This document shows positions 1,552-62,391 of a stretch of DNA of 64,000 nt, in pieces. The position numbers and the translations under genes are program-made. Position 1 is the first letter of the stretch; each line of letters starts with the position of its first letter. The notes beneath the pieces are model-generated. The model was not told the DNA's origin, made no database searches, and saw only the letters and a list, made by a program, of their open reading frames with translations. This DNA comes from an uncultured Mycoplasmatota bacterium (GTDB lineage: Bacteria > Bacillota_I > Bacilli_A > RF39 > UBA660), in the NCBI GenBank assembly GCA_946403755.1, contig CAMJBC010000001.1:80735-144734 (forward strand), in the 5' to 3' direction.

Positions 1552-3612
1552 ATGAATAAAAAAGGTTTTACACTAGCCGAAATGCTAGCAGTAATTGCAG
1601 TACTTGGAATACTAGTATTATTAGTAGTGCCAAATGTACTTAAAAATTATAGAGAGGCTAAAAGAATTGCCTTTATCGATGAGGCAAAAACAGTATATTC
1701 TAAAGCAACAGATCAATATGTTTTATCAAGAACAAAAGGTAATAAAATAGGTTTAATTACTAATGACAATGAATATAAGTTAGATATTGATAATGCTAAT
1801 GATCTAGAGTATTTTGTAAGAATTAATGATGAAGGAGTAGTTACTCAATTTAGACTAACTAATAGAGAATTTTGCATAGTTGGTACTGGAGATTTCTTAG
1901 GCAATTATTCTAAAGATGATGTAATTGATATGACTGATGAAACTCAAGCAGGAAGATGCGTTACTAGTGCTTTAGTTGATGATGGAGTATATGCATTAAA
2001 ACTTCAAACAGCTAAACCAATAGTAAGTGAAGCAGATCCAAGAACAATATATTTAAAATATAATGTTGGTTGGTTTAAAAATAAAAGTGCTAAAACTGAG
2101 TTAGATAGAGATGAAAATGGAAAGTATAAAGTTACTATTCCTTATAGAAAAAATAACTATTTTAAAAATTCTTCAGTAACAAGACAAGAAGGAGAAACAA
2201 CTGTTAAAATTAAAGCAATTAATTGCGATGGTACTTTAGCAGCTGGTAATACTGGAGATGGATTATTTACTGGTACAGAAACATCTAACGAAATATTTTC
2301 TTTCTCAGAATTTGAACCAAAGTATTATCAAATAAAATTTGAACTTAATAATGGAACTGGTAGTATAACTACATTGAAAGTACCATACGGAGTTCAAAAG
2401 AATTTACCAGTTAATAAAGATAGTAATGGATATGGAATAAATATTAAGAGAACTGGATTTTTATTTAAAGGATGGACTAGCGGTGGAGTAACATATGCTG
2501 ATGGAGCTGCATTACCAGTATTAACTGATGATAATGAAGATGAGTATCCACACTTTAAATTTGATAATGTTTCAGTATGTAAAAATGGACTAGATTCAGC
2601 TAATACAAATATCATTCCATTTGAGCCAATTTGGGAAGCTTCAACTTATACAGTTAAATATGATGGAAATACTAATACAGGTGGTTCTAAAGCTGATTCT
2701 GTAGAGACATATGATAGAGCATTTAACTTACCAAATAATGTATTTACTAAATCAGGATATACATTTACAGGATGGACTGCTACTGGTATTGATACATCAA
2801 CAGCAAAACATGGTACATCAAATAATCCAAATACAGCATGGAATGGTACAACTAAAACTAAAGATACTTACTTTAAAAACTTAACTCCTGTTAGAGATGC
2901 AGAAGTTACAATGAAAGCTAATTGGGAAGCTAATAAATTCACTATTGCTTATGATGGAAATGGATCAGATAGTGGTTCAACAGCATCTCATGAATGTACT
3001 TATGACGCAGATTGTAATTTATCTAACAATGGATTTACAAGAACAGGATATGTATTTGATAAATGGGTATATAGTGGTACAACTTATTCTCAAGGAGATA
3101 GTGTTAAAAACATAACTACAACACCTAATGCAACTATTACTTTTAAAGCAACATGGATTGATAAATGTAGTAGCATTGCTTATGTAGATGGTACTTCATG
3201 TACTGTTTCATGCGGTGGAGGTACTTATAATAGAGTAGCTTATTCATCTTATGATTCAAATTATAGATGTCCAGCATCAGATACTTCAAGTGGTGGTAGT
3301 GCATGTCAAACTCAAGACTGTTGTTCTTCAACATATACATCATATGGTTCATGGGGTAATTATGGATCTTGTTCAAAAACTTGTGGCGGTGGATTAAAAT
3401 ATAGATCTAGATCATATACATATTATTCAAATTATAATGGACAAAATTGTGGATCAGGAACTGAATCAGAAAGTGCAAGTTGTAATACACAATCATGTTG
3501 TACACCACAACAAGTAATACCATGGCAATGTTGTACAACTGCTTGTGCATGGTATTGTTGCCCATCTGGTAGTAAATTACACAGTGATGGTACATGCTGG
3601 TATGAGTGTTAA
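1552..3612 (+). CDS. Type IV pilin-like (prepilin N-terminal methylation motif) surface protein with three Flg_new/Listeria-Bacteroides repeats and a C-terminal Cys-rich region holding two TSP1-like modules
   Basis: N-terminus MNKKG|FTLAEMLAVIAVLGILVLLVV is a class III signal (G-F, Glu at +5, hydrophobic helix). Repeats have the form Y.V.YDGNG..G......Y......L..N.F.R.GY.F.GW. The C-terminus contains SCTVSCGGGTYNR...C and WGNYGSCSKTCGGGLKYRSRS...C...C. RBS AGGTGA and an extended -10 TGTATAAT lie upstream. Confidence 0.8.
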   Translation: MNKKGFTLAEMLAVIAVLGILVLLVVPNVLKNYREAKRIAFIDEAKTVYSKATDQYVLSRTKGNKIGLITNDNEYKLDIDNANDLEYFVRINDEGVVTQFRLTNREFCIVGTGDFLGNYSKDDVIDMTDETQAGRCVTSALVDDGVYALKLQTAKPIVSEADPRTIYLKYNVGWFKNKSAKTELDRDENGKYKVTIPYRKNNYFKNSSVTRQEGETTVKIKAINCDGTLAAGNTGDGLFTGTETSNEIFSFSEFEPKYYQIKFELNNGTGSITTLKVPYGVQKNLPVNKDSNGYGINIKRTGFLFKGWTSGGVTYADGAALPVLTDDNEDEYPHFKFDNVSVCKNGLDSANTNIIPFEPIWEASTYTVKYDGNTNTGGSKADSVETYDRAFNLPNNVFTKSGYTFTGWTATGIDTSTAKHGTSNNPNTAWNGTTKTKDTYFKNLTPVRDAEVTMKANWEANKFTIAYDGNGSDSGSTASHECTYDADCNLSNNGFTRTGYVFDKWVYSGTTYSQGDSVKNITTTPNATITFKATWIDKCSSIAYVDGTSCTVSCGGGTYNRVAYSSYDSNYRCPASDTSSGGSACQTQDCCSSTYTSYGSWGNYGSCSKTCGGGLKYRSRSYTYYSNYNGQNCGSGTESESASCNTQSCCTPQQVIPWQCCTTACAWYCCPSGSKLHSDGTCWYEC

Positions 3613-49007: not shown

Positions 49008-49775
49008 TTAAACTTTTCTAGATTGTATTTCAGCCATTTTATTTAATACTTCTGATGCATTCTCTTTTGTTATCTCAGTATATCCTAATTCTTTTAATGC
49101 TTGGATCTTAAATGTATTTAATTGTTGTGTTCTTGATAATTTTTCTTCTTTATCATTTTCAATTTCTTGTTCAAATCTAGCATGTGATTCAACTAATTTA
49201 GATTTAGATGCACCACCATTGTTATATAAATTAAATGCTGTGAATACTATACTTTCTAATATAAATTGTTTAGTATCATTAAACTTAAATTCATTTGGAT
49301 TAGTAAAACCACACTTCTTTGATAAATATGCAAATAAATATTTAATTTCTTGTACATTATCAAGTGATTGTAATACATGATACAAATATAAGAAAATCCA
49401 ATATGTTTCTTTTGTTTTTTCTTCAGTAAATTTCTCTTTAATTAAGAATACTATATCATTTAATAATTCTTGTTCTTCTTTAGTTAGATTTTTATAATTG
49501 AATGATTGACTATTCATATCTCTAACATTTTGATTCAATCTAGCTTCAACATTTTCTAAATATTCACTTGTTATTTTAATATTTTTAATAGCATCATCAC
49601 TGCCATCTTCAATATCTAATAATTTTAATAATAAAATACGTTTTTCTTGAGGCCATTTACTTAAAGAATCAAATTCTAGATAATTATATATCATTTGTCT
49701 AGAAACTCCTAAATATTTGGCTAATTTTACCTTTGATATACCTATTTCACTTAATAAATTGTTTAATTCTTTCAT
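49008..49775 (-). CDS. XRE-family helix-turn-helix protein with an unknown 190-aa C-terminal domain
   Basis: N-terminal LSEIGISKVKLAKYLGVSRQMIYNYLE is an HTH_3-like motif. GGAGAG RBS. The rest is unrecognised. Confidence 0.65.
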   Translation of the reverse strand: MKELNNLLSEIGISKVKLAKYLGVSRQMIYNYLEFDSLSKWPQEKRILLLKLLDIEDGSDDAIKNIKITSEYLENVEARLNQNVRDMNSQSFNYKNLTKEEQELLNDIVFLIKEKFTEEKTKETYWIFLYLYHVLQSLDNVQEIKYLFAYLSKKCGFTNPNEFKFNDTKQFILESIVFTAFNLYNNGGASKSKLVESHARFEQEIENDKEEKLSRTQQLNTFKIQALKELGYTEITKENASEVLNKMAEIQSRKV

Positions 49776-49807
49776 ACCCTACTCTCCTTAATGTTCTATC
49801 TTTCTTG

Positions 49808-49846
49808 TACAATATAATTGTATAGCATTTTACACATTATTGTCAA
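49808..49846 (-). promoter_or_regulatory. Promoter of the HTH gene with an overlapping inverted-repeat operator
   Basis: On the minus strand: TTGACA (plus-strand 49841-49846), 16-nt spacer, TGcTATACA. The inverted repeat TACAAT-nnn-ATTGTA (49808-49822) overlaps the -10/+1 region. Confidence 0.5.
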
Positions 49847-49892
49847 CAATATTTAATTCTTTTTTGATAAAAAAGAGAAGTTTTTTCTTCCC

Positions 49893-51371
49893 TTAATTAT
49901 TATTATTTTCTAATTGTAATTTTTGTTGTGATTCTTTCTTTTCTCTAGGTCCAGGAGCAACATATTTTAAATCTTCTGATAAATACATAGGTATCATTTT
50001 ATGTTCAACTTTTGGTGCCCTTTTAGCGTATAAATTAGATATACAAGTGAAACTATCAAAACCTAGTTTCCAATAAACAGGTTCTACTCTTCTAATACTT
50101 TTTTTAGATATAGCCATTTTATATCCATTATAGTCATATTCATCAAAAGTGTATAATTCATGATTGTAGTCATCAACTACATTTCTATAAGTATTATCTG
50201 TTTTGACAGCAATACCCTCTTCTATTAATTTGTTAAATGCCCATTTCTCTATATTAGATGCAGGAGATAATGGAGCTTCACCAAATGCCACTACATTAGT
50301 ACCTAATTCTCTTATTCGAGAAAATACTTTTGATCCATCATTACCGAAATAATTAAATATATATCTAACATTACCTACTAAACCACGATATTCTTCATAA
50401 TGTTCTGAATAATCATATCGCCCTGATAACTCACTAAAATCTAAAGTGTTTGCAGGATAATCTTTAGCTACAAATAAGCCATTAAACAATTCATTATAAT
50501 TTATGCCACTATTTGTTTTATTAGCATTAATATATTCATTGCTTTCAACACTTAATCTACTTCTAAGTTTACTATTAGCTAAAAAATCAATAACTGTTTG
50601 TGATAAAGATCCACTAATTATCTTCATATTAATAAAGTCTATTGAATTAATATCTTTACTATTTAAGCAACATTCAATAGCATAACATTTTATATAATCT
50701 GGACAACTATCATTAATTAATACATAAGGTACATAATAAGAAATTTCGGCTGATGATTCGAATACTTTTAAACTACATTTAGGATTTTTTAATAATAATT
50801 TTGCATATGTACTGTTAACATTTTGAAGACGTTCAGATGCTCTTTCATTACAATTTAAATTCAATGCAATTCCAATTCTTCCTAAAGTACTCTCATCTTC
50901 ATTAATACTATTAATTGTTTTGTCAGAACAGTTAGGATTTAGTGCTATGGCAAAATGAGAATCACCATCAAAATCTAAGTTATATAATTCATCCAACATA
51001 TCTGCAGTACAATTACTATTAGCAGCAATAGCACATCTGATATATTTATCATCACTATCTAAATACTCTCTTAATTCATCTGAAGAACACATTGAACTTT
51101 CCAAATATTTTAATATATTAATAAAAGTTTTTGATTTATTATTAATATCTTCAGAATATAAATATGGATATTTATCATGAATTAATTTGCATATTCTTTT
51201 ACATAATTTTTCAAAGCTAATATCAATATTTTCGTCTAATATTTTACTTATTTCTTCAATTAATTCATCTTCTCTTGCCCATTTAGTGTTTAATGATTCC
51301 ATGTTTTCATCATCTTCAGATTCTACATCCTCTATTTCAAAATCAATATCTTTTTTAAAATTTTCACTCAT
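49893..51371 (-). CDS. Hypothetical 492-aa cytoplasmic protein with LRV-like (A/L).N(P/S)NC repeats and an unknown C-terminal domain
   Basis: Acidic N-terminus. Repeats IAANSNCTADML, IALNPNCSDKTI, IALNLNCNERAS and LLKNPKCSLKVF resemble leucine-rich variant/HEAT-like repeats. The C-terminal 200 aa are unrecognised. Confidence 0.5.
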   Translation of the reverse strand: MSENFKKDIDFEIEDVESEDDENMESLNTKWAREDELIEEISKILDENIDISFEKLCKRICKLIHDKYPYLYSEDINNKSKTFINILKYLESSMCSSDELREYLDSDDKYIRCAIAANSNCTADMLDELYNLDFDGDSHFAIALNPNCSDKTINSINEDESTLGRIGIALNLNCNERASERLQNVNSTYAKLLLKNPKCSLKVFESSAEISYYVPYVLINDSCPDYIKCYAIECCLNSKDINSIDFINMKIISGSLSQTVIDFLANSKLRSRLSVESNEYINANKTNSGINYNELFNGLFVAKDYPANTLDFSELSGRYDYSEHYEEYRGLVGNVRYIFNYFGNDGSKVFSRIRELGTNVVAFGEAPLSPASNIEKWAFNKLIEEGIAVKTDNTYRNVVDDYNHELYTFDEYDYNGYKMAISKKSIRRVEPVYWKLGFDSFTCISNLYAKRAPKVEHKMIPMYLSEDLKYVAPGPREKKESQQKLQLENNNN

Positions 51372-51439
51372 AAAAAGCCCCCTAATAAAAGTGTTTTTTA
51401 TTATAACAAATGCCTATTAATAAATCAATTAAAAAGAGA

Positions 51440-52534
51440 TTATTTTAAATACCAAATCTCTTTTCCTTCTTTAAACACTTGTTTAATAATTCCACCACCT
51501 ATTACTTGTTCACCAAGATAAATAACACAAGCTTGTCCTGGAGTTACTGATTTTCCATTTTCATATTTTACTCTTATATTTTTATTATCTATATATTCAA
51601 TTGATACTGGAACATCCTCACTTCTATATCTAAACTTTGCAGTAGCAAAAGTTGGATGTTTACTTGAGATAAAATTCATATCTTCAATTAATGCTTCATC
51701 AGAAAGTAAGTATTTTGAATCATCTCCATAAGCAACATATAAAGTATTAGTTTTAGAGTCTTTACCACATACATAATGTCTTTTTTCATCACCAGAAAGA
51801 CCTACATTACGTCTTTGACCAATGGTATAGTTCATTAAACCATTATGCTCCCCTACTTTCTTTCCAGTTTCTACATCAATTATATCTCCTTTTTTACCTT
51901 TTAAATAATTAGATACAAATTCTTGATAATGTCTTTCTCCAATAAAGCATATTCCAGTAGAATCTTTCTTTTTAGCTACAGGTATTCCTGCTTCCTCTGC
52001 TATTTTTCTAACTTCTGGTTTAGTTAAATGACCTATTGGAAATAATACATCTTTTAATTGTTCTGTTGTAACTTGAGATAAAAAGTAAGTTTGATCTTTA
52101 TTTTGATCTACTGCTCTTAATAATCTATTTCCTTCTATTCTAGCATAATGACCAGTTGCTATCTTATCAGCACCTAATTTAAAGGCCTCTTTTTTGAATT
52201 TATCAAACTTTATATATTTATTACACATAATATCAGGATTTGGTGTTCTACCCTTCTCTAATTCAGTTAAGAAGTACTTAAATACATCATCCCAATATTC
52301 TTTTATAAAATCTACTCTATATAATGCAATTCCAAGTTCATCGCAAACTGCTTTAGCATCAGCATAGTCTTGTTCTTGAGGACATATTCCATCAGTAACA
52401 CCTTCAGGATCATTATTAATATTAGAATCCCAGTTTTTCATAAATAGTCCTGCTACTTCATATCCTTCTTTCTTTAAAAGATATGCTGCTACTGCAGAAT
52501 CTACTCCACCACTCATGCCAACTATTACTTTCAT
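51440..52534 (-). CDS. mnmA: tRNA-specific 2-thiouridylase
   Basis: VGMSGGVDSAV PP-loop, NPDIMCN, DSTGICFIG and the C-terminal beta-barrel region. Confidence 0.95.
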   Translation of the reverse strand: MKVIVGMSGGVDSAVAAYLLKKEGYEVAGLFMKNWDSNINNDPEGVTDGICPQEQDYADAKAVCDELGIALYRVDFIKEYWDDVFKYFLTELEKGRTPNPDIMCNKYIKFDKFKKEAFKLGADKIATGHYARIEGNRLLRAVDQNKDQTYFLSQVTTEQLKDVLFPIGHLTKPEVRKIAEEAGIPVAKKKDSTGICFIGERHYQEFVSNYLKGKKGDIIDVETGKKVGEHNGLMNYTIGQRRNVGLSGDEKRHYVCGKDSKTNTLYVAYGDDSKYLLSDEALIEDMNFISSKHPTFATAKFRYRSEDVPVSIEYIDNKNIRVKYENGKSVTPGQACVIYLGEQVIGGGIIKQVFKEGKEIWYLK

Positions 52535-52636: not shown

Positions 52637-52750
52637 ATGGCAAAAAAGACAAAAGGAAGAGATATTTTTAAAAAAGTAATTGCTTGGATTTTTTTACTAG
52701 CAATGATATTAAGTATATTTGCTTATGCATTCTCAGTATTTGCAAAATAA
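52637..52750 (+). CDS. Possible 37-aa membrane peptide (not in the ORF track)
   Basis: AGAGG RBS 8 nt upstream. MAKKTKGRDIFKKVIAWIFLLAMILSIFAYAFSVFAK has a basic N-terminus and one TM. A terminator follows directly. Confidence 0.35.
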   Translation: MAKKTKGRDIFKKVIAWIFLLAMILSIFAYAFSVFAK

Positions 52751-52777
52751 AAGAACTATTTAATAGTTCTTTTTTTA
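52748..52777. terminator. Bidirectional terminator
   Basis: AAGAACTA-tttaa-TAGTTCTT stem with flanking A/T runs. Overlaps the stop of the minus-strand 733-aa gene. Confidence 0.7.
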
Positions 52778-54961
52778 TTCATAAGCAGTATATCTTCTAG
52801 TTACTTCAAAACCACAGTGACCATTTCCTCTAGTACCATGTTTTATTATAATACCATTTTTAACAGCACTCATTTCTATCCATACTTCTTTACCAGCAGA
52901 ATCTCTTCCAAGAAACATGCCAATATGATTAGCTCCACCATCTTTAGTTGTTCTACTATATAATCCAACATCACCAGGTTTTAAATCACTTCTTTTAACA
53001 TTAGTGTATGCATTAATTTTATCATCAAGAAATGAACCTGTATAAATATTTTTTCTTGCATTAATAGTTTGCCCTGCTTTTAATAAACATCTAGAAACAA
53101 AACCAGAACAGTCTAAATATTTTGGAATTTCATGTTTTAAATTCATATCCCTAGCTGGCATACTATAACAAATTCCTTTATTCATTAAAGTTAGCGCTAC
53201 TTCAACAGCTTTATATCTTTCCTTTTCCATGCTTTCTGGCCAACTCTTCATAACTTCTTTTAATTCTTTAATTGCTTTAGCACTCATATTAGAAGTATCC
53301 ATATTATAATCAGATATTGTTATAAAAGTAGCTTTATTAGAATTCTCTTTAGAACTATCAGTTTGAGTTGATGATGTTTTTTCTGGTTCAAATGGTTTAA
53401 TATAATTCTTTAATAAATCGTAACAACCACTAGCAGAAGTAATTCCATAGGCTGATAAATCTAAATAGAAATTTGATTTAAACTCAGCATTTCCATTAGT
53501 ATTATTTACTGGACTAGCAAACGCTTCTTTTACTTGTGATGTAGCATCATTAATCATCTTTTGTGCATTATTTACAACAATAGCAAAATTATTAATTTTT
53601 TCTATCTGTTTTTTTAATTCATCAGATTTTTCTTGATATCCATCAATAGTATTTTGAATAGCTTGTATTTCCTCATTAGAAGGCTCTAAACGGCAGTTAG
53701 TTTTTTGATTATATTCAATACCAAGTGAATTCTTAGTAAGTACATAATCACATACCTCTTTTTGAGAACTTCTCATACTACTAACTTTAGTAGTTAGTTC
53801 AGTTATTTGATTTTTTAAACTTTCATATTCTTTTTCTAGTTCTGGTAAATTACTATCATCTAATTCAGTATCTGGATATAGAAAATCTTCTACCATTTTT
53901 TTAGCAGAACTTAATACATCAGATATAAAACTAGATGAATTAATACTAGCATTTAATAAACTTTTATATGTCTCTAAATTTTCTTTTACATTTTTCCAAC
54001 TATTTCCTCTTAGTTTACCAGAATTATTTATTTCACTCATAAAATCAGTAATAGAGCCCATCATTTCATTACATTTATTTGCGTCATCTTTCAATGATGG
54101 AATTATACTGTTTAATGATAAACCTAATTTACTTACATCTATTTTTCCTATTTTACCTGGTTCTAGACTTGTACCTAAAAATGATGTTATTTCATCAAAT
54201 TTTCCTGCTAAAGCAGTAGATTTTGTTTCTTCGATTAATTCTTTTGTTGTAGCATTTACTTGATCAGCAGTTAATCCTTTAATAGTAGATTCTTTTGATT
54301 TAGATCCACCGCCACCTATATTTGAATGAGCTGCATTTGAAGCAGCCGCATCAATAGCAGAATATACACTTGCTATAGTAGAAATTGCTCCTGCTTCTTC
54401 TACTATACCATTATATAATGTATTATTTATATTTTTATAATAATTTACAACATCGCACATAGCACCAACTAATCCTGCTTCACCAGCAGTTACAGTATAT
54501 GATATCTTACCTGAATCATCAATATAACCTACTAAAGAATTCATAGAGTCATTAACGTAGCCTAAATCAGATGCCACTAAACCATCACTTAATTTATTTT
54601 TACTAATAAATATAGAATTATTAAATTTATCATCTTGAATTAAATTCATTACTTCTTCAGATGTTAATGAAACTAATTTACCTTCTTCATCGAAAGTATA
54701 ATAGTGTAAACTATCTATAGTTATAATTGGATTACCATTTTCATCATATACTGAATAGTTGTTTGTTCCATCTATTAAAGAAATAATTCTACCATTTGAA
54801 TCTAAAACAAATTTATTTAAATTATCCTCAATTACTTCATTATCATTATTTTTATCATCAGTAGTATGATAACTAATTATAACTTGATTATTATTATCAT
54901 TTTCATAACTTGCTTTTAATACATCTTCATAACTAACTAATTTATATTTTAATTCAGCCAT
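52775..54961 (-). CDS. Large multidomain protein: YD-like repeats, internal LXG-like helical region, C-terminal NlpC/P60 cysteine peptidase
   Basis: AGGTG RBS before the ATG at 54961. YSVYDENGNPI and YYTFDEEGKLVSL are YD-type motifs. GKLRGNSWKNVKENLETYKSLL, followed by coiled-coil sequence, resembles an LXG domain. C-terminal LDCSGFVSRCL...GDVGLY...ANHIGMFLG is an NlpC/P60 Cys-His core. Confidence 0.7.
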   Translation of the reverse strand: MAELKYKLVSYEDVLKASYENDNNNQVIISYHTTDDKNNDNEVIEDNLNKFVLDSNGRIISLIDGTNNYSVYDENGNPIITIDSLHYYTFDEEGKLVSLTSEEVMNLIQDDKFNNSIFISKNKLSDGLVASDLGYVNDSMNSLVGYIDDSGKISYTVTAGEAGLVGAMCDVVNYYKNINNTLYNGIVEEAGAISTIASVYSAIDAAASNAAHSNIGGGGSKSKESTIKGLTADQVNATTKELIEETKSTALAGKFDEITSFLGTSLEPGKIGKIDVSKLGLSLNSIIPSLKDDANKCNEMMGSITDFMSEINNSGKLRGNSWKNVKENLETYKSLLNASINSSSFISDVLSSAKKMVEDFLYPDTELDDSNLPELEKEYESLKNQITELTTKVSSMRSSQKEVCDYVLTKNSLGIEYNQKTNCRLEPSNEEIQAIQNTIDGYQEKSDELKKQIEKINNFAIVVNNAQKMINDATSQVKEAFASPVNNTNGNAEFKSNFYLDLSAYGITSASGCYDLLKNYIKPFEPEKTSSTQTDSSKENSNKATFITISDYNMDTSNMSAKAIKELKEVMKSWPESMEKERYKAVEVALTLMNKGICYSMPARDMNLKHEIPKYLDCSGFVSRCLLKAGQTINARKNIYTGSFLDDKINAYTNVKRSDLKPGDVGLYSRTTKDGGANHIGMFLGRDSAGKEVWIEMSAVKNGIIIKHGTRGNGHCGFEVTRRYTAYE

Positions 54962-55004
54962 ATTTACACCTATCATATGTTAACATTATACTATATTTTA
55001 AGTA

Positions 55005-55034
55005 ATAAAAAAAAGAGTATTTAACTCTTTTTTT
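55005..55034 (-). terminator. Hairpin plus U-run between the two NlpC/P60 genes
   Basis: AAAGAGT-atttaa-ACTCTTT stem. On the minus strand it is followed by U8-10. A TATAAT for the downstream gene lies at about 54990. Confidence 0.55.
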
Positions 55035-56193
55035 ACTTATTATATTCATAGTTTTCATCATAGTCAGTATATCTATAATATACGCCCCAGTTTTTATTTC
55101 TATGAGTAACTATTACTCCTCCACCACTAACTTCAATCCATACTTGTCTTCCTTCATCATCTTTTCCTATATACATACCTATGTGGTTAGAGTTTCCACC
55201 TGAAGTTGATGCGTTAGCTAAAGCAACATCGCCAGGTATTAAATCTTTGCTGCTTATAGATTTAAACTTCTTACTAGTTACATATGTTCCTGTATAAGCA
55301 CCTTTATTAATATCAATTCCTGCGGCTACTAAACAATAAGTAACAAATGAAGAACAATCCATTTGAGTTGGCCATCCATTTTTCATACCATGTCTATTAG
55401 GTTGACTATATGTAATTCCTTTATCCATTAATGATAATGCTGTTTGAATAGCTATATATCTTTGGGCATCAAATCCTTCAGAAGGCCAATTTCTTTCTAG
55501 TTCTTCAAGTAATTGTTTAGCTCTAGAACTAAAATGAGTAGTATCTACATTTGGTCTAAATATACCAAGTTTTGGATTGTAATTATATAATGATCTACTA
55601 TTCTTTCTAAATGCTTCCATTCCAGATTGAGTAAATGTTCCATCATCAATTCCAATTGCACATCTAGATATATTTTCTATATCAGTTATAGCTTTTTCAA
55701 ATGCTCCATATAATGAAGAATCTGTTGATTTTAATTTTTCTAATAATTCTTTATAATGATATAACTCTTTATAAATACCATCCCAATAACTAATTAAAGA
55801 TGCATAGTTATTACCACTATCAACTTTAGATGATTGTTCTCTTAGATATCTTAAATATCCTTCTATTTGTTTTAATCTTATTTTATATTCATCTAATTTA
55901 GAATCATCTAATGAAGAGTATCCTTCCATGTAATTTAACATAGAATTATTAGCATTTTTAGCAATGCTCATATAATTTTCACATATAACATGTAAAGTTT
56001 TAAATACTTCTACATATAATGATAATTTCTTTCTAACAGAATTATATCCTCCACCTTTTAATTGATCAGTAGATTCATAAATAAATGCATTTAAAACACT
56101 AATAGTAGCTTGAGATGAATTCATAACTGCATTAAGTGCATCCATATTATTAGAATTAGCACTTGCAACATCAGAGGCAATTACTTTTGTCAT
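55033..56193 (-). CDS. LXG-like N-terminal domain fused to a C-terminal NlpC/P60 peptidase
   Basis: No signal peptide. N-terminus ...ISVLNAFIYESTDQLKGGGYNSVRKKLSLYVEVFKTL... carries an L.G motif in a helical context of about 200 aa. C-terminus MDCSSFVTYCL...GDVALA...SNHIGMYIG is paralogous to the C-terminus of ORF 52775-54961. Confidence 0.7.
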   Translation of the reverse strand: MTKVIASDVASANSNNMDALNAVMNSSQATISVLNAFIYESTDQLKGGGYNSVRKKLSLYVEVFKTLHVICENYMSIAKNANNSMLNYMEGYSSLDDSKLDEYKIRLKQIEGYLRYLREQSSKVDSGNNYASLISYWDGIYKELYHYKELLEKLKSTDSSLYGAFEKAITDIENISRCAIGIDDGTFTQSGMEAFRKNSRSLYNYNPKLGIFRPNVDTTHFSSRAKQLLEELERNWPSEGFDAQRYIAIQTALSLMDKGITYSQPNRHGMKNGWPTQMDCSSFVTYCLVAAGIDINKGAYTGTYVTSKKFKSISSKDLIPGDVALANASTSGGNSNHIGMYIGKDDEGRQVWIEVSGGGVIVTHRNKNWGVYYRYTDYDENYEYNK

Positions 56194-57290
56194 TGTTGAT
56201 CACCTCCATCATCTTCATAACCATAGTCTTCATATTCTTTATCTTCTTGAGACTTTTTATACATAGTATAACCAGCTGCTCCAGCTCCAGCAGCAAGACC
56301 AAGTCCAGCTATAACTCCAGCAGCAACTTTACCGGAATTAGATTTCTTTGGTACTTGTGCATCATCAATCGGAGTATCAATATCTATTATTTGATCTTCT
56401 ATATCAATAATAGGTTCTTCATATTCTGGTTCTTCAATAATAGGTTCCTCAATTATTGGTTCTTCAATTACTGGTTCTTCATCTATAATTGGTTCATCTA
56501 TAATAGTTGGCATTTCCATTGGCTCAGTATTTGTAATAACACCTTGTTCATATTTTTCAACACTAGGTGTACTAGTATGAGTCTTTGTAGGTTTATCAGG
56601 TTTTGGTTTTGATGGTGCACTAGTTGGTGCTTCTGTTACCATTTCAGTTATTACTTCTGTAATAGCTTCAGTTACCGGTTCAGTTGTTGGATATACAGTT
56701 TCAGTAGTTGGTTCTCCTGGCCCAGTTTCTGGCTCTGTAACTTGAACCTCTCCTCCTGGTGGATTTGTAGGTGGTGTTGTTGTTGGTGTTGTTGGTGTTG
56801 GAGTACTTTCTTCTCCACCTGTAGTAGTTGGCCTTGTATAACCTCCATAACTTCTATCATCATCATCGTCATCATCTGACTTTTTATTTTTTCCATCTAA
56901 TCCATCATTATAGCCTTCAACAATAGGTACTTCTTTTTCAAGTAAAGTATCTAATGATGTAGTTGCAAATTCACTTAAACCAACAACTGATGATTTATAT
57001 GATTGAACTTGAAAACCTAAATCTATACTTTGACCTGCTAAAAAGTCATCCATAGTTTGGAATCCTTCTCCAACAGTTCTTATATTAGATACGTCATTAT
57101 TTAATTTAGTAAATATCTCGTTAGCTGCTTTTAATAATTGTTCTATTAATGGTGGTTCAGCAGCAGGTACTTTAGTTGTACTACTATATTTATTTGCTGA
57201 AGCAGTTGCATCAAGTCCAGCTTTACTAGCAGTTTGAATAGAATCTAAGCCACTATTAAGATATTCTTTATTGCTTAAGACTTCTCCCAT
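56190..57290 (-). CDS. Tail-anchored protein: helical N-domain of about 135 aa, Asp7 run, Pro/Thr-rich and EPII(E/D) repeats, C-terminal TM, acidic tail
   Basis: No N-terminal signal peptide. The single TM VAAGVIAGLGLAAGAGAAGYTMY lies near the C-terminus. Low-complexity DDDDDDD, TPTPTTPTTTPPTNPP and EPIIEEPIIEEPIIEEPEYEEPII segments. Its stop overlaps the start of the next gene (ATGA). Confidence 0.65.
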   Translation of the reverse strand: MGEVLSNKEYLNSGLDSIQTASKAGLDATASANKYSSTTKVPAAEPPLIEQLLKAANEIFTKLNNDVSNIRTVGEGFQTMDDFLAGQSIDLGFQVQSYKSSVVGLSEFATTSLDTLLEKEVPIVEGYNDGLDGKNKKSDDDDDDDRSYGGYTRPTTTGGEESTPTPTTPTTTPPTNPPGGEVQVTEPETGPGEPTTETVYPTTEPVTEAITEVITEMVTEAPTSAPSKPKPDKPTKTHTSTPSVEKYEQGVITNTEPMEMPTIIDEPIIDEEPVIEEPIIEEPIIEEPEYEEPIIDIEDQIIDIDTPIDDAQVPKKSNSGKVAAGVIAGLGLAAGAGAAGYTMYKKSQEDKEYEDYGYEDDGGDQQ

Positions 57291-57343
57291 TTATATTCCT
57301 CCTATAATAAATAAATTATATCATAAAATATTATATTAATATA

Positions 57344-58852
57344 TTATTTTATCAAAACTTCCCCTGTCATTTCTTCTGGAATATCAATATTTAAAAGTTT
57401 TAACATTGTAGGTGCTATATCACCAAGTTTTCCTTCTTTTAGTTCTATATCCTTTTTAGTAATTATGAATGGAACAGGCTCTGTAGTATGGCTAGTTACA
57501 ACATTATGATTTTCATCCCACATAGTATCACAATTACCATGATCTGCTGTTACTATTAATATTCCATCTAACTCAGTAACTTTATCATATATTCTTTTTA
57601 AACATTTATCTAAAAATTCTACAGCTGTTTTAGCTGCTTCATAAACACCAGTGTGTCCTACCATATCACCATTAGCAAAATTTAATATTACAACATCATA
57701 CATATCTTTAGATAATTCATCTATAAGTGTATCAGTTACTTCTTCTGCACTCATTTCGGGTTTTAAATCATATGTTGCAACTTTAGGACTAGGTATTAAT
57801 ATTTTATTTTCATTTTTATAATTTATTTCTTGTCCTCCATCAAAGAAGAATGTTACATGGGCATATTTTTCAGTTTCTGCTATTCTTAATTGACTTAAAT
57901 TATTTTTTTCAAGTACATCTCCTAAAATATTTTTTAAATCAGGATCATTAAATGCATGAGGACATTTGACTGTATCAACTACAGGCATCATAGTAACACA
58001 TTTAACATTATTAAATGAGACTATATGCATATCTTTTTCTAATGCTAAGTTTTCATATTCATGAGGATTTGTAATACAAGTAAACATTTCTCTTAATCTA
58101 TCTTTTCTAAAATTAAATGCTATTACTCCATCATTATCAGATAATTTAGCTTCTGTAATAATACCAGGTATAACAAATTCATCAGTTATATCTTTTGCAT
58201 ATGATTCATCTATTAATTCTTTAGCACTATTAAATTTAGGAGCATCACCATATACAATAGCGTCATATGCAAGTTTTAATCTATCAAAGTTATTATCTCT
58301 ATCCATTGCATAATATCTTCCTGATATAGTAGCAATATGTCCATATTTAATATCTTCTATTTGTTTAATGTATTCATAAGCACTTTTTGGTGGTACATCT
58401 CTACCATCTAAGAAAAAATGCATATACAAATCAACATCATTCATTTTACACATCTCAATGATAGCTTTTAAATGATTAATATGAGAGTGTACTCCCCCAT
58501 CAGATAAAAGTCCCATAACATGTAATTTACTATTATTCATTTTTACATGATTAATTACATTTAATAATTCTTTATTTTCATAAAAACTATTTGTTTCTAT
58601 TTCATGATTTATAAATTCAAGTGGTTGATAAAATAATCTACCTGCTCCTATATTCATATGCCCTACTTCACTATTACCCATTTGTCCATCTGGAAGTCCT
58701 ACAAAGTTTCCTGATGCTTGTAATAATGTATGAGGATAATTATTCCATAAATAATCAAATGTAGGTTTATTTGCATTTTTAAATGCATTTCCATCTGATT
58801 CCTCTCTTATTCCACATCCATCTAAAATTGCTAAAATTAATGGCTTCTTCAT
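57344..58852 (-). CDS. gpmI: 2,3-bisphosphoglycerate-independent phosphoglycerate mutase
   Basis: LAILDGCG, NSEVGHMNIGAGR, DGGVHSH and TADHGN motifs. 502 aa. Confidence 0.95.
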   Translation of the reverse strand: MKKPLILAILDGCGIREESDGNAFKNANKPTFDYLWNNYPHTLLQASGNFVGLPDGQMGNSEVGHMNIGAGRLFYQPLEFINHEIETNSFYENKELLNVINHVKMNNSKLHVMGLLSDGGVHSHINHLKAIIEMCKMNDVDLYMHFFLDGRDVPPKSAYEYIKQIEDIKYGHIATISGRYYAMDRDNNFDRLKLAYDAIVYGDAPKFNSAKELIDESYAKDITDEFVIPGIITEAKLSDNDGVIAFNFRKDRLREMFTCITNPHEYENLALEKDMHIVSFNNVKCVTMMPVVDTVKCPHAFNDPDLKNILGDVLEKNNLSQLRIAETEKYAHVTFFFDGGQEINYKNENKILIPSPKVATYDLKPEMSAEEVTDTLIDELSKDMYDVVILNFANGDMVGHTGVYEAAKTAVEFLDKCLKRIYDKVTELDGILIVTADHGNCDTMWDENHNVVTSHTTEPVPFIITKKDIELKEGKLGDIAPTMLKLLNIDIPEEMTGEVLIK

Positions 58853-59652
58853 TGATATTCCTCCTCGTATTTTTTCTTTAGTCTCATACCTAAATTATAG
58901 CCTTTTTTATAAAAATCTTCTACATTTTCATTTAAATAATCTTTTCTATAACATAATTCAAATGTTAAATAGCTATGATAATTAGCAATACTTAATCCAT
59001 CTAAAACATAATCAAAATTAACACTACCATCACCAGGTAATAAATGCTCATCTTTTTCTCCATGATTATCATGAATATGTATTGCAAACATTTTGTCTCT
59101 AAAATGTTCAAAATCAAAATTATCTTTAAAATGACAATGATCATGACCACAATCATAACATACGCCAACATTATCATAATCCATATGATCTACTAAATAT
59201 TCTAAATAACCAGGCATTTTTGTGTTTTCAAAAGCAACTTTAATATTCAATTCTTTAGCATGATCACATATTCTTCTAAATCTTTCTAAACCTATTTTAT
59301 TTGGTTTAGGAGCATCAAATCCAACACATGCATGAATTATTACCATATCTATTCCTAAAGCTTTTAATTCATCTAAATTCTTTAAATATCTTTTAACCCA
59401 TGCTTCTCCAACTTCACCATCTAACCATATATCATTCATATTTCTATAACCTAGATGCGCAAATATAACATTTAAACCCTTACTTCTAGCATATTTAACT
59501 TGTTCTTCTTGAGATACATCAAATGTTTTATAATCATTTTCATACCATTGAACAAACACATTTTTAAATCCAGAAGCTACAATCGCATCTATAGTTTCAT
59601 ATGCTGAAACACTCTCATTATCATTACTTATTACTACCGCTAATTCCTTCAT
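58849..59652 (-). CDS. Sugar phosphate isomerase/epimerase (xylose isomerase-like TIM barrel) family protein
   Basis: Pattern ...IIHAC...FEN...CYDCGHDH...IHIHDNHGEKDEHLLPGDGSVNF is typical of AP_endonuc_2/XylA-like TIM barrels. Confidence 0.65.
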   Translation of the reverse strand: MKELAVVISNDNESVSAYETIDAIVASGFKNVFVQWYENDYKTFDVSQEEQVKYARSKGLNVIFAHLGYRNMNDIWLDGEVGEAWVKRYLKNLDELKALGIDMVIIHACVGFDAPKPNKIGLERFRRICDHAKELNIKVAFENTKMPGYLEYLVDHMDYDNVGVCYDCGHDHCHFKDNFDFEHFRDKMFAIHIHDNHGEKDEHLLPGDGSVNFDYVLDGLSIANYHSYLTFELCYRKDYLNENVEDFYKKGYNLGMRLKKKYEEEYQ

Positions 59653-60493
59653 TATTATCCTTTCCATATATTACTTTATATATATTAGAACTATTACCTT
59701 CTATTTCTTCGATATACTTAATTAGATTATTAACATTAGAATTATTATATTTATTCTTATTATTATAATCTTTAAGCTCATTAAAATACTTTAATAATTC
59801 ATAATTATTAAATTCTTCTACTAAATCTTTTCTATCATTAATATCTAAATAACTTAATGAATCATTTATTATTTCATAATATAGTTTCTTATTATTATCT
59901 AATAATTTTTCATTACCAAAATAATTCTCATTAGATATCTTCATTTCATTATATAAATTACTAATACTTTTTCTATCATAAGTATTAATGTCATATTCAA
60001 GAGATAAAACTGGATATTTAAGTAATATATTACCTTTATGTTTCTTAATATATCTAGTTACCTCATCATTTAAATATTTATTATATTTTGCATTAAAATT
60101 ACTGTTTAATATAAATATTTTAGCTAATTTTAAAATATAATTTGAAAAATAATTTTTATTAGTAATTAATTTATATTTTCTAAAATAACTAATTTGATTA
60201 TAAAAATCTTTTAATATATTTTTACATGCTAAATATCTATCTTTTTTATTCTTAGACTTTAAATCATATAATCTATTTTCATCAATAAAAACAGTATTTT
60301 CTTCTTTTTTATCAAAAGATAATTTAATATTATTTTCATTAAATTTATCTATATGAGAATAATTAAATCCATTTATTTCAGATTCATTTTCAAGTAATAA
60401 TATGAGATTGGTTTTAAATTGAATGATATTATCATCTTTAAGAGTATCCATTATAGAAAATAGGCTATTTATTATTTGTTTCGATGTTTCCAT
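59624..60493 (-). CDS. Hypothetical Asn/Lys-rich cytoplasmic protein
   Basis: Long ORF with no TM and no recognisable motif. Its 3' end overlaps the start of the isomerase gene. The start is either ATG 60493 or GTG 60502. Confidence 0.45.
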   Translation of the reverse strand: METSKQIINSLFSIMDTLKDDNIIQFKTNLILLLENESEINGFNYSHIDKFNENNIKLSFDKKEENTVFIDENRLYDLKSKNKKDRYLACKNILKDFYNQISYFRKYKLITNKNYFSNYILKLAKIFILNSNFNAKYNKYLNDEVTRYIKKHKGNILLKYPVLSLEYDINTYDRKSISNLYNEMKISNENYFGNEKLLDNNKKLYYEIINDSLSYLDINDRKDLVEEFNNYELLKYFNELKDYNNKNKYNNSNVNNLIKYIEEIEGNSSNIYKVIYGKDNNEGISGSNK

Positions 60494-60638
60494 CTTCTTC
60501 ACCTACTTTTTCTTCATATACTTTATCTATAAATTTTAATATTTCATTTGATAAATCTATTTCTTCTAATAAAATATACTCTTCATTCATATTATCACTC
60601 TCTAAAATATTATAACAAAAAACTCGAAATATTTCGAG

Positions 60639-61223
60639 TTAATCTTTATGATATTCAAAATCATTTAATATCTTATCCATAAGATCATTTAATTCTTTAG
60701 TTACTTTATCATTTTCTAAATCAATTTTACCTAAGATAATTTCTTCAGGTGGCATACTTACTGGTGCTGATGAAAGAGTTATTTGATAAAAATCATTCAT
60801 TACAGGCTCAACAAAATATGCTATAAATTGTCTAGTTATTAATTTAGCTTCTTTAATAGGAATAATCATATCACATACATATACTTTGTAATTAAATATT
60901 TCATTAGTGTAATCTTTATAGAATCTAAAGCTTTTATCTATATCTTCACATCCACATTCTTTCATAAATCCTTTTGTAGAATTAATAACAGTTTCAATTC
61001 TTTTATCAAAAGTTCCCTCTTCACAATACCCGTCAGATGTAACTTGTTCAATGCATCCATCTTTTTCAGCTAATAATAATACTTGAGGATCATCGCTTTC
61101 TAATCTTTGGAATCCTTCTAATAATGGCATATAAAGACCTTGAGCATGTAACTCATAATTCATATCTCTTAGAGTTTCTAAAAGATTAGCTGACATTTCA
61201 TCAATAACAATATCTTCTTCCAT
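60639..61223 (-). CDS. Hypothetical acidic cytoplasmic protein, 194 aa
   Basis: AGGTGA RBS. Net acidic, several Cys (CIEQ, YCEEG, CGCED), no known motif. Confidence 0.45.
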   Translation of the reverse strand: MEEDIVIDEMSANLLETLRDMNYELHAQGLYMPLLEGFQRLESDDPQVLLLAEKDGCIEQVTSDGYCEEGTFDKRIETVINSTKGFMKECGCEDIDKSFRFYKDYTNEIFNYKVYVCDMIIPIKEAKLITRQFIAYFVEPVMNDFYQITLSSAPVSMPPEEIILGKIDLENDKVTKELNDLMDKILNDFEYHKD

Positions 61224-61260
61224 ATTCTTTCACCTATTATATTTTATCATATTTAATTAA

Positions 61261-62391
61261 TTATTTATATATTTTGTATGTAATATTGTAATTTCTAACT
61301 GAATAATTAGTCATTTCTAAATCTATACTTAATTTAGGGCTAATAATAATTGTTTCATTATGACTTTCTTTATTCATAAAATCTTTAATTAAAGAAGTAT
61401 TTTCTTTAGATAAAGATAATTTAGTATTTAGTTTCTTAGAAAAGTATTCAAGATCATTTTTAATAATATTTAAATAATAATCACTAAAATAATTACCTTT
61501 ATAATTTAATATTATTTGATCATATTCTGATTTACTCTTACTATAATTAAATCTATAATATGCATCACTAGTTCCACCATGGCAGAATGATGAAGAAAAA
61601 CTATAATTACCTTCAATATATCCTACAGAACATAAATCTTTACTAGTGTTTTTTAATGCTACATAGAAATAATCATTATATTTAAAGTATTGTTTATTAT
61701 TTTCCATAGATATATCATATAATCTCTTCATAAAATTTGTTTTATCATTATCTTTTAAAGAAGAAATTATAGTATCTAAACTAATTGGTTTAAAAATTGT
61801 CTTTTCTTCAGATATATATCTTGGACTAATAGTGTATTCTAATCCATCATAATAATAAGCTATTCTCACATACATATTATCAGTTTCTATATTAATATTA
61901 TGAAAATTAAATCTATCAAAATCATTTATAAGTTTTTTAATATTATCAGATATATTTATCTTTCTATTATACATCTCATCTAATAATTCAAAATCTTTTG
62001 TATAATTATGATTTTTTATATTATCTTTAGTACCATCAACATATATATTTAATAAAGTAGACATAGTATTATATGTAATAAAATAATTATCTTTTTTAAA
62101 GCATTTTTCAAAATATCTACACCTATCACTAGTATCATCTACAAACCCAAGAGAATATAGTTTTTCATCCATATATGCATGTATATCTTGATGAAAAACA
62201 TCTTTTGGTTCAGCATTTGGTGCAGGTGTAGGAGAAATATATGCTGGTACTGTAGATTCATTTTTAAGATTTTCTTCTGCTATATTAATATTTCTATATT
62301 TTTTAATATAACTCACAACTAATAAGCCAATTATTAATAATACTGCAAAAATAATATCCCATTTTTGCTTTATATCAGTTTTATCTTCCAT
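61261..62391 (-). CDS. Hypothetical membrane-anchored extracytoplasmic protein, 376 aa
   Basis: AGGTGA RBS. N-terminal TM (WDIIFAVLLIIGLLVVSYI). No known domain. Confidence 0.5.
   Translation of the reverse strand: MEDKTDIKQKWDIIFAVLLIIGLLVVSYIKKYRNINIAEENLKNESTVPAYISPTPAPNAEPKDVFHQDIHAYMDEKLYSLGFVDDTSDRCRYFEKCFKKDNYFITYNTMSTLLNIYVDGTKDNIKNHNYTKDFELLDEMYNRKINISDNIKKLINDFDRFNFHNINIETDNMYVRIAYYYDGLEYTISPRYISEEKTIFKPISLDTIISSLKDNDKTNFMKRLYDISMENNKQYFKYNDYFYVALKNTSKDLCSVGYIEGNYSFSSSFCHGGTSDAYYRFNYSKSKSEYDQIILNYKGNYFSDYYLNIIKNDLEYFSKKLNTKLSLSKENTSLIKDFMNKESHNETIIISPKLSIDLEMTNYSVRNYNITYKIYK

Follow-up and report, generated by a model that had tools for sequence, protein, structure and literature searches.

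How do cell-wall hydrolases that bear no Sec signal leave the cell that makes them, and whose wall do they cut? The question is raised by a 64,000-nucleotide stretch of DNA from an uncultured Mycoplasmatota bacterium (contig CAMJBC010000001.1, positions 80,735 to 144,734; the whole stretch is referred to here as the window), in which an original prediction, made from the letters alone, had described three minus-strand genes of 366, 386 and 728 amino acids (aa), the first two overlapping by 4 nucleotides (nt). Listing of the open reading frames (ORFs) confirmed the three genes, designated A, B and C in 5' to 3' order, and placed the A/B overlap at 56190-56193. The best explanation overall, to which we assign a probability of roughly one half, is that they form an 'orphan' type VII secretion system (T7SS) substrate module, in which a Lap1-type protein (A) would serve two LXG-like NlpC/P60 hydrolases (B and C) apart from the secretion genes. 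The features on which the argument draws, in window coordinates, are the following, with hidden Markov model abbreviated to HMM and transmembrane to TM:

56190..57290, minus strand: gene A, 366 aa; Lap1-like domain (TIGR04197 score 31.3 bits, cut-off 26) followed by a disordered stalk, a TM helix and an acidic tail
56901..57290, minus strand: A residues 1-130, helical domain resembling Lap1/DUF3130/TIGR04197 (TIGR04197 match; family alignment)
57048..57062, minus strand: FxxxD motif of A, F77-Q-T-M-D81; F77 and D81 are invariant columns of the A-family alignment A2
56328..56900, minus strand: A residues 131-321, acidic, PT-rich, EPIIE-repeat disordered stalk; sequence weakly kept, length and composition kept
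56259..56327, minus strand: A residues 322-344, single Gly/Ala-rich TM helix (hydrophobic stretch)
56193..56258, minus strand: A residues 345-366, KK plus acidic/Tyr tail (EDKEYEDYGYEDD), conserved in the family
55033..56193, minus strand: gene B, 386 aa; LXG-like domain plus NlpC/P60 endopeptidase
55594..56193, minus strand: B residues 1-200, LXG-like four-helix domain (PF04740 at 17.2 bits; matches of relatives; AlphaFold2 helices)
56053..56061, minus strand: L45-K-G47, the L-x-G motif of B at the turn between helix 1 and helix 2 (alignment and AlphaFold2 secondary structure)
55054..55551, minus strand: B residues 215-380, NlpC/P60 (also Amidase_5), with the Cys of DCSSF and the His of NHIG (HMM; alignment to Spr/MepS)
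52775..54961, minus strand: gene C, 728 aa; conserved N-region of ~520 aa with an LXG-like domain, then NlpC/P60
53477..54109, minus strand: C residues 290-500 (733-aa numbering), LXG-like domain with invariant L322-R-G324 and W327 (hhalign, HMM)
52778..53305, minus strand: C residues 558-733, NlpC/P60 domain, a paralogue of the one in B (HMM; 41% identity)

The maximal ORF of gene C extends over 52775-54976 and encodes 733 aa; its start is likely the ATG at 54961, which lies behind an AGGTG and yields a 728-aa product identical to database protein P0043. None of the three products exhibited a hydrophobic N-terminal stretch and, because it was the maximal ORFs that were inspected, an upstream start cannot conceal a Sec signal in A, B or C, in agreement with what had been predicted.

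The N-terminus of A (residues 6-87) matched the 85-position NCBIfam model TIGR04197 ('T7SS_SACOL2603') above its curated cut-off, and the model was matched by 17/17 A relatives (best E = 9.2e-9). TIGR04197, DUF3130 and Lap1 are one family, and in its member LapD1 the mutations F77A and D81A abolish secretion of TelD (Klein et al. 2022, PMC9600955). A keeps FxxxD at the identical positions, F77 and D81, within the family stretch G-E-G-F-x-T-M-D-N-F-L. The DxxTxxxGN motif of Lap1 was not seen in alignment A2 on inspection by eye, the conserved stretch at that place being S-T-T-x-x-P-x-x-E-P. Unlike Lap1 proteins, which are soluble and of ~100-150 aa, A is not a small hairpin: a stalk of ~190 aa, a TM helix and a conserved acidic tail are added, and its paralogues comprise 677-953 aa. 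The stalk contains a tandem repeat array of 15/30-nt units (56403-56506), which specifies the EPIIE-type repeats. The TM helix is present in 16 of 17 family members, the exception (P0039) being truncated, and is directly followed by KK(K); the 22-aa tail (KK-x-x-EDKEYEDYGYEDD) is better conserved than the stalk, and an akin DYGYE/DYSYE tail ends the A-like proteins linked to essC as well as the C-family proteins P0053 and P0054. The original prediction had recognized the PT and EPIIE repeats and the single C-terminal TM helix, but had missed the Lap1/TIGR04197 domain with its FxxxD. Judged by its sequence, gene A appears to encode a Lap1-type targeting factor permanently fused to a stalk and a membrane anchor, which would be new relative to the ordinary soluble Lap1.

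The orientation of A in the membrane is suggested by its paralogues. An A-like protein found at loci L095 and L098 has a glucosaminidase domain (6.8e-10) between the Lap1-like domain and the PT stalk, and other A-like and C-like proteins begin with an enzyme-like domain and end with the same stalk, TM helix and DYGYE-type tail. The glucosaminidase, which is useful only outside the membrane, the enzyme-like N-terminal domains and the KK(K) that follows the TM helix argue for an N-out/C-in arrangement, and A is probably exported and left anchored in this manner, with a stalk whose length would suffice to cross the wall.

Longer versions of the module were observed in a rabbit-gut metagenome-assembled genome (MAG), CANRCX01 (L006 6535-11341 and L007 1438-4066), in which the A-like proteins comprise 741 and 677 aa and carry an extra N-terminal domain of ~290 aa with a GxSxG-like motif. 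Two B-type genes come after one of the A-like genes; one product bears a glucosaminidase domain, the other a second, C39_2-like domain. The other A-like gene is followed by a gene for a payload-free LXG-like protein of 209 aa. Both modules lie in housekeeping surroundings (M16 peptidases, SecDF and RelA; RNase HII).

B and C were assigned as LXG-like proteins fused to NlpC/P60 on family-level evidence. PF04740, the LXG family, matched 6 of 20 close relatives of B (best E = 1.9e-6) and 4 of 12 relatives of C (best E = 6.4e-6). Across the B family, L45 of the L-x-G motif is nearly invariant and G47 is invariant; AlphaFold2 was used to model both full-length B (pLDDT 80) and its N-domain alone (pLDDT 72), and placed helices at residues 6-43, 48-88, 97-121 and 131-180, with L45 and G47 in the loop between the first two. 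Residues 290-500 of C were colinear with the B family by hhalign, and the B N-domain HMM matched the C homologue of locus L088 at 6.6e-7. Towards the C-terminus, PF00877 (NlpC/P60) matched B at 38 bits and C at 26.5 bits (gathering cut-off 23), so that the paralogous peptidase domains originally proposed were borne out, and the catalytic Cys of DCS(S/G)F and His of NHIGM are conserved in both. A sequence profile search of the PDB returned Spr/MepS, a Tn916-type hydrolase and CwlO for the catalytic domain of B, and designed coiled coils only for its N-domain. On this basis the payloads of B and C are predicted peptidoglycan endopeptidases. The YD-like (RHS) repeats that had been proposed for C were rejected, as no HMM matched at E <= 1, and a Lap1-like segment inside C was likewise rejected after hhalign of the A family against C and BLASTP of A against C both returned nothing.

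In order to place the B N-domain among other proteins, its profile was compared with 1.84 billion proteins; 370 cluster representatives were recovered at E <= 0.001, of which the best 147 were surveyed for Pfam families. Among these 147, PF04740 was the commonest family (15/147, best E = 2.5e-9); 93 representatives were stand-alone domains (~195 aa) and 41 carried an extra domain. The catalytic domains joined to the B-type N-domain were C39_2 (12), NlpC/P60 (9), glucosaminidase (6), phage lysozyme (1) and M15 (1), and none of the 25 Pfam families listed for the set was a nuclease, NADase or similar toxin domain, suggesting that all recognised catalytic payloads of this LXG-like subfamily are peptidoglycan hydrolases. 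C-type N-regions were found with either of two types of NlpC/P60, with a glucosaminidase, or with a stalk plus TM helix; both families are thus variable at the C-terminus, a trait of LXG effectors.

A candidate secretion system was found in related genomes. The window mnmA is at most 87% identical to that of any GTDB species representative, its nearest counterparts belonging to uncultured gut 'Bacilli', 'Tenericutes', 'Clostridium sp. CAG:628' and similar MAGs. When GTDB relatives were searched, B alone retrieved none and alignment A1 retrieved one MAG, whereas a degenerate DNA motif (NNxMxN(Y/F)MEGY), applied strictly, retrieved three MAGs among the representatives, which led to the essC loci. 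In two of the three, CAMKNB01 (mnmA 84% identical to that of the window) and RUG10929, the B-like gene sits in an essC locus that encodes, in order, an LXG-like protein (221 aa), a helical protein (125 aa), a WXG-like protein (107 aa), a WXG100 protein (103 aa; PF06013 above threshold), an A-like protein (716-916 aa), a B-like protein (202 aa), a helical protein (113 aa), EssC (1528 aa; FHA plus FtsK_SpoIIIE, 3e-41) and an 84-aa ORF. Window proteins A, B and C are most similar to the products of the fifth, sixth and first of these genes, respectively (A, E = 2e-13 with the A-like protein of essC locus L097; B, E = 1.3e-28 with the 202-aa B-like protein; C, E = 4.8e-10 with the 221-aa LXG-like protein). 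An A-like/B-like pair lies immediately upstream of essC in four loci; at L101, the pair position adjoining essC is occupied by a signal-less helical protein with a C39_2 peptidase domain. EssC relatives were present in 28 MAGs of the lineage, including those whose mnmA is 81% and 79% identical to that of the window.

The essC loci of the lineage (L097 1-10497, L098, L099, L110 and L101 7615-14835) are compact, consisting of two WXG100-like genes, small helical genes, LXG-like genes, sometimes a gene for an A-like TM protein, a gene for FHA-bearing EssC and an 83-84-aa ORF without a Pfam match; those of L097 and L101 are flanked by housekeeping genes (AddAB, ValS, a ZIP transporter, RelA). No EsaA, EssA or EssB homologue was visible in the loci examined, and no clear match was found between these loci and the T7SSb to T7SSj layouts of Garrett et al. 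2024. The essC locus L119 10001-19654, from the more distantly related circular 1.2-Mb MAG JBAMOY01, resembles the kinase-containing T7SSe/j types and encodes a WXG100 protein (4e-13), a DUF6382 protein, a Ser/Thr kinase, a second WXG100-like protein, a MORN-repeat protein and a DUF4176 protein. The simplest reading of these comparisons is that the window holds a dispersed, payload-bearing copy of genes that belong to the type VII system of the lineage, and that A, B and C would leave the cell through a putative T7SS encoded elsewhere in the genome. With A/B paralogues upstream of essC in the lineage itself, the unknown export route or new autolysin-delivery system of the original prediction is not needed.

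Several observations weigh against this reading. PF04740 scored 17.2 bits in B, below its gathering score of 26.5, and did not match C, so that the LXG regions originally proposed for both proteins stood at the level of their families but not at that of the individual sequences. Foldseek searches of the PDB with the B models returned BAR-like and generic helical bundles (E >= 2e-3), with PE/PPE proteins further down the ranking; neither an LXG nor a Lap structure was among the matches. Neither essC nor a WXG100, small helical partner or Lap2-like gene was found in the 64-kb window, as had been predicted for essC and WXG100: the five largest other ORFs encode SMC, PolA, an LCP protein, a pilin-like protein and a 492-aa protein without assignment, and lineage-derived EssC, WXG100 and small-helical queries matched only A, B and C. 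The same held beyond the window, no essC, WXG100 or Lap2-like gene lying within 10 kb of the payload-bearing, mnmA-linked A-B modules in metagenome loci, and no cis link being within reach in 28 metagenome loci and 6 contigs; moreover, two MAGs with an A-like/B-like pair beside essC lack the pair at the mnmA locus. No cognate immunity-like ORF was found after the hydrolase genes in the window, again as the original prediction had noted. Lastly, the Lap1 proteins of S. intermedius are reported to be non-secreted (PMC9600955); were A retained in the cell likewise, its N-domain and stalk would be cytoplasmic.

If the module nonetheless operates as a set of T7SS substrates, its action may be envisaged as follows. 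Translation of A and B would be coupled through their overlap, and the Lap1-like hairpin of A would pack beside the LXG-like helices of B, and probably of C, by analogy with Lap1-LXG pairs of S. intermedius. The FxxxD of A, brought next to the L-x-G turn, would target the complex to an EssC-type ATPase encoded elsewhere, a step suggested by homology and by the essC loci of relatives, and the B and C hydrolases would thereby pass the membrane without a Sec signal. A would be co-exported and anchored N-out/C-in, so that the hydrolase is held on a wall-spanning tether, as the paralogue with a glucosaminidase ahead of its stalk would imply; the enzymes would then cleave peptidoglycan stem peptides outside the cell. 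A bolder version of this scheme, possible but put forward only tentatively, is that A-type proteins are a new class of T7SS substrate, exported yet C-terminally anchored in the membrane of the producer and with a stalk that displays LXG-tagged hydrolases on or outside the cell surface. The whole would act as a device, tethered and contact-dependent, for cutting walls; the producer would be protected by the tether instead of an immunity protein, and the device would be served by a compact essC locus without visible EsaA, EssA or EssB genes.

To consider at whose wall the enzymes are aimed, three co-linear genomes were compared: that of the window and those of L003 and L126, both from one sample. 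Although mnmA (96.7%) and the gene next to it (encoding a 255-aa, helix-turn-helix-like protein; 98-99%) are nearly identical among the three, A is only 53-63% and B 61-63% identical, and two A/B alleles coexist in the one sample. A block of four genes upstream is 34-77% identical (376-aa TM-anchored protein, 34%; 194-aa protein, 62-73%; 292-aa protein, 60-63%; apurinic/apyrimidinic (AP) endonuclease-like protein, 69-77%). The boundary of identity is sharp and falls at the B/C-mnmA junction, with window positions ~55033-62391 diverged and 49008-52534 conserved; gpmI separates the AP endonuclease-like gene from A in the window, but not in L003 or L126. C adjoins B only in the window and in L131, whereas in the L003 genome the C homologue lies ~75 kb away on the same contig. 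L138 holds two A-B pairs in tandem, and L128 combines a 99%-identical B with a following C that has just 51% identity at its N-terminus. An A-like gene was directly upstream of a B-like gene in every metagenome locus with a long enough flank, and this strict gene adjacency points to a functional link between A and B. The A-B-mnmA synteny holds in genomes whose mnmA genes are 77-98% identical; the module was found upstream of mnmA in 0 of 80 related species representatives.

At L001 (11209-12270), which is more distantly related, the A-B pair is followed not by a C-type gene but by one for a 353-aa transglutaminase-core protein (6.4e-9), and the third position of the module is therefore variable.

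Because the module is accessory, occupies a fixed site, is hypervariable between near-identical genomes, is duplicated in some strains and has swappable C-terminal domains, we lean towards antagonism at the strain level over housekeeping, with the hydrolases aimed at neighbouring Gram-positive cells. The same data bear on the alternative that a T7SS does export the hydrolases but that they remodel the producer's own wall, for T7SS passage, growth or cell separation, in the manner of EssH and with A positioning them in the wall. We regard this as rather unlikely. Counting against it are the patchy distribution of the module (absence at mnmA from the 80 representatives, and only three GTDB MAGs with the strict motif), its extreme allelic divergence beside 97%-identical genes, and its tandem duplications and exchanged C-termini, which are easier to reconcile with conflict than with a household function. 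A domestic role is nevertheless in keeping with the failure to find an immunity gene, with recognised payloads in the LXG-like subfamily that are all peptidoglycan hydrolases and never a nuclease or NADase, and with the persistence of the A-B-mnmA arrangement over that range of mnmA identity; payload-free A/B paralogues occupy essC loci as core components would, no wall-spanning protein of the EsaA kind was seen in the essC loci examined, and EssH is an earlier example of a T7SS with a wall hydrolase of its own (PMC13059805).

Two further alternatives dispense with type VII export. In one, the mnmA-linked genomes have no essC, and A itself, via its Gly-zipper-like TM helix and acidic tail, releases or translocates the hydrolases in a holin-endolysin-like manner or by a new route. 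No T7SS gene is near any mnmA-linked module, the MAGs with a pair beside essC lack the mnmA-linked pair, the TM helix of A is rich in Gly and Ala, B matches the phage-type Amidase_5 family, and the gene for a TM protein overlaps that for a hydrolase by 4 nt, all as this account would have it. We judge it improbable, however, because FxxxD and L-x-G are invariant in the mnmA-linked alleles, which implies ongoing selection by a recognising machinery that is arguably still present, and because A and B are close paralogues of essC-adjacent genes; no phage genes are nearby, and A, at 366 aa with a long stalk, is unlike known holins, so that neither the small holin nor the prophage context of a holin-endolysin cassette was found. 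We know of no report of LXG or Lap1 families functioning without a T7SS. In the other, B and C are ordinary coiled-coil-regulated autolysins of the CwlO, RipA or PcsB type, the helical N-domain acting as a coiled coil for autoinhibition or for binding a partner, and their similarity to LXG and that of A to Lap1 is coiled-coil noise. The best fold match of the full-length B model was indeed the RipA-like Cg1735 of Corynebacterium, a coiled coil plus NlpC/P60 (E = 2e-3, TM-score ~0.26), NCBIfam gave weak matches to RipC, and the PDB sequence matches of the B catalytic domain included CwlO and MepS; yet the Cg1735 match is weak and driven by overall architecture, CwlO, RipA and PcsB carry signal peptides that B and C lack, and the neighbouring gene is Lap1-like rather than FtsEX. 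With TIGR04197 above its curated cut-off throughout the A relatives, invariant motifs, and paralogues placed between WXG100 genes and essC, we consider coincidental resemblance highly improbable.

The orphan substrate module remains the preferred explanation, and in mechanism it would be closest to the Lap1-LXG effector modules of T7SSb, without being a canonical member. In S. intermedius, the LXG toxins TelC and TelD are served by Lap1 and Lap2 factors, including LapC1 and LapD1 (Klein et al. 2022, PMC9600955; 2024, PMC10801868). As in those modules, a Lap1/TIGR04197-type gene lies directly upstream of LXG-like genes in the window, the L-x-G occurs at a helical turn, C-termini are swappable, no Sec signal is present and the genes are located away from essC. 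Unlike them, the window has neither Lap2 (DUF3958) nor an immunity gene, its payloads are only peptidoglycan hydrolases, its LXG match is sub-threshold and DxxTxxxGN was not seen; C further differs from LXG effectors in that its LXG-like domain is internal, after ~290 aa. 

The EssH hydrolase of S. aureus, which carries a Sec signal peptide, resembles B and C in being a cysteine-peptidase-type wall hydrolase that is linked to a type VII system and has a non-catalytic N-terminal domain. EssH is a CHAP enzyme dedicated to T7SSb, and its N-terminal domain is required for function (PMC13059805); it lacks an LXG-like domain and acts together with EsaA, which spans the wall, whereas the window hydrolases themselves bear a T7SS-type targeting domain. 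The reverse-arrangement lipase toxins TslA and TslM of S. aureus (TslM: PMC13560087) have a parallel in the essC-linked A-like proteins (716-953 aa) and in P0053 and P0054, all of which put an enzyme-like domain before the helical T7SS-type domain. This enzyme-like domain has a GxSxG-like motif and gave one weak Esterase match, and it is absent from window A. At their C-terminus the A-like proteins have the stalk, the TM helix and the acidic tail, an arrangement that to our knowledge has not been described for TslA or TslM. CwlO of B. subtilis, RipA/Cg1735 of Corynebacterium and PcsB of S. pneumoniae share with B and C a helical N-domain followed by an NlpC/P60-superfamily peptidase, but they are secreted by signal peptide, controlled by FtsEX-type or other partners, and have no link to Lap1, LXG or EssC. 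The Tae amidases of type VI secretion systems (T6SS) and the Tox-NlpC/P60 toxins are likewise secreted, anti-bacterial, wall-degrading payloads of the NlpC/P60 fold; Tae effectors, unlike the window proteins, are paired with periplasmic immunity genes, and Tox-NlpC/P60 has been recorded only in Bacteroidetes and delta-proteobacteria, via T6SS, PVC or TcdB/TcaC and not LXG/T7SS (Zhang et al. 2012, PMC3482391). What is unusual about the window module is the fusion of Lap1 to a stalk, TM helix and tail, the hydrolase-only LXG-like subfamily, the lack of a detectable immunity gene and the hypervariability of the module.

The neighbours of the module include gpmI, mnmA and the AP endonuclease-like gene, and no phage genes were among those examined. 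B and C are separated by 56-71 nt, the longer value corresponding to the start of C at 54961:

54962..55032, minus strand: B-C spacer, with an AT-rich hairpin plus T-run, a TATAAT and an AGGTG ribosome-binding site, read directly

The hairpin/U-run and TATAAT of the original prediction are thus present, but their function as terminator and promoter gained no backing: a terminator scanner made no call on the hairpin, and promoter-like sites were no more frequent in the window (GC content 24-27%) than in shuffled sequence.

On the 3' side of gene C, only a convergent, conserved 37-aa TM ORF precedes mnmA. This ORF (52637-52750, plus strand) has its own ribosome-binding site and specifies a basic N-terminus and one TM helix (MAKKTKGRDIFKKVIAWIFLLAMILSIFAYAFSVFAK); it faces gene C across a bidirectional hairpin, is kept in L003 and L126, and is annotated as a 36-aa gene in five contigs. 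Its conservation beside hypervariable A and B makes a role as cognate immunity gene unlikely. Between mnmA and the 255-aa gene lies, in the window only, a gene (49893-51371, minus strand) whose acidic 492-aa product shows repeated 'ALNPNC'-type (LRV-like) motifs and matched no Pfam family; this product has weak similarity (28% over 99 aa, E = 1e-5) to a 963-aa LRV-repeat protein, the gene for which comes after the C homologue at L088. The 492-aa protein and the fast-evolving upstream genes were considered as immunity candidates and set aside, no supporting link having been found. At the far end of the window (1552-3612, plus strand), a 686-aa protein has a type IV pilin-like N-terminal methylation motif, Listeria-Bacteroides (Flg_new) repeats and matches to thrombospondin type 1/spondin-like TSP1 domains (6e-9), an unusual combination for a bacterium.

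For the passage of T7SSb-type effectors across the thick Gram-positive wall and into neighbours, the anchored Lap1 fusion would be a natural experiment, as would an LXG-like subfamily devoted to peptidoglycan hydrolases; the two in combination hint at weapons that are tethered to the surface and degrade walls, or else at hydrolases that form part of the secretion process. The findings also bring uncultured gut Bacilli with small genomes (labelled CAG-628, CAG-433 or 'Tenericutes') within the range of T7SS-type biology; the essC loci of this lineage seem more compact than the T7SSb to T7SSj types so far described, and the hypervariability of the module at a fixed chromosomal site in co-occurring gut strains points to conflict at the level of strains.

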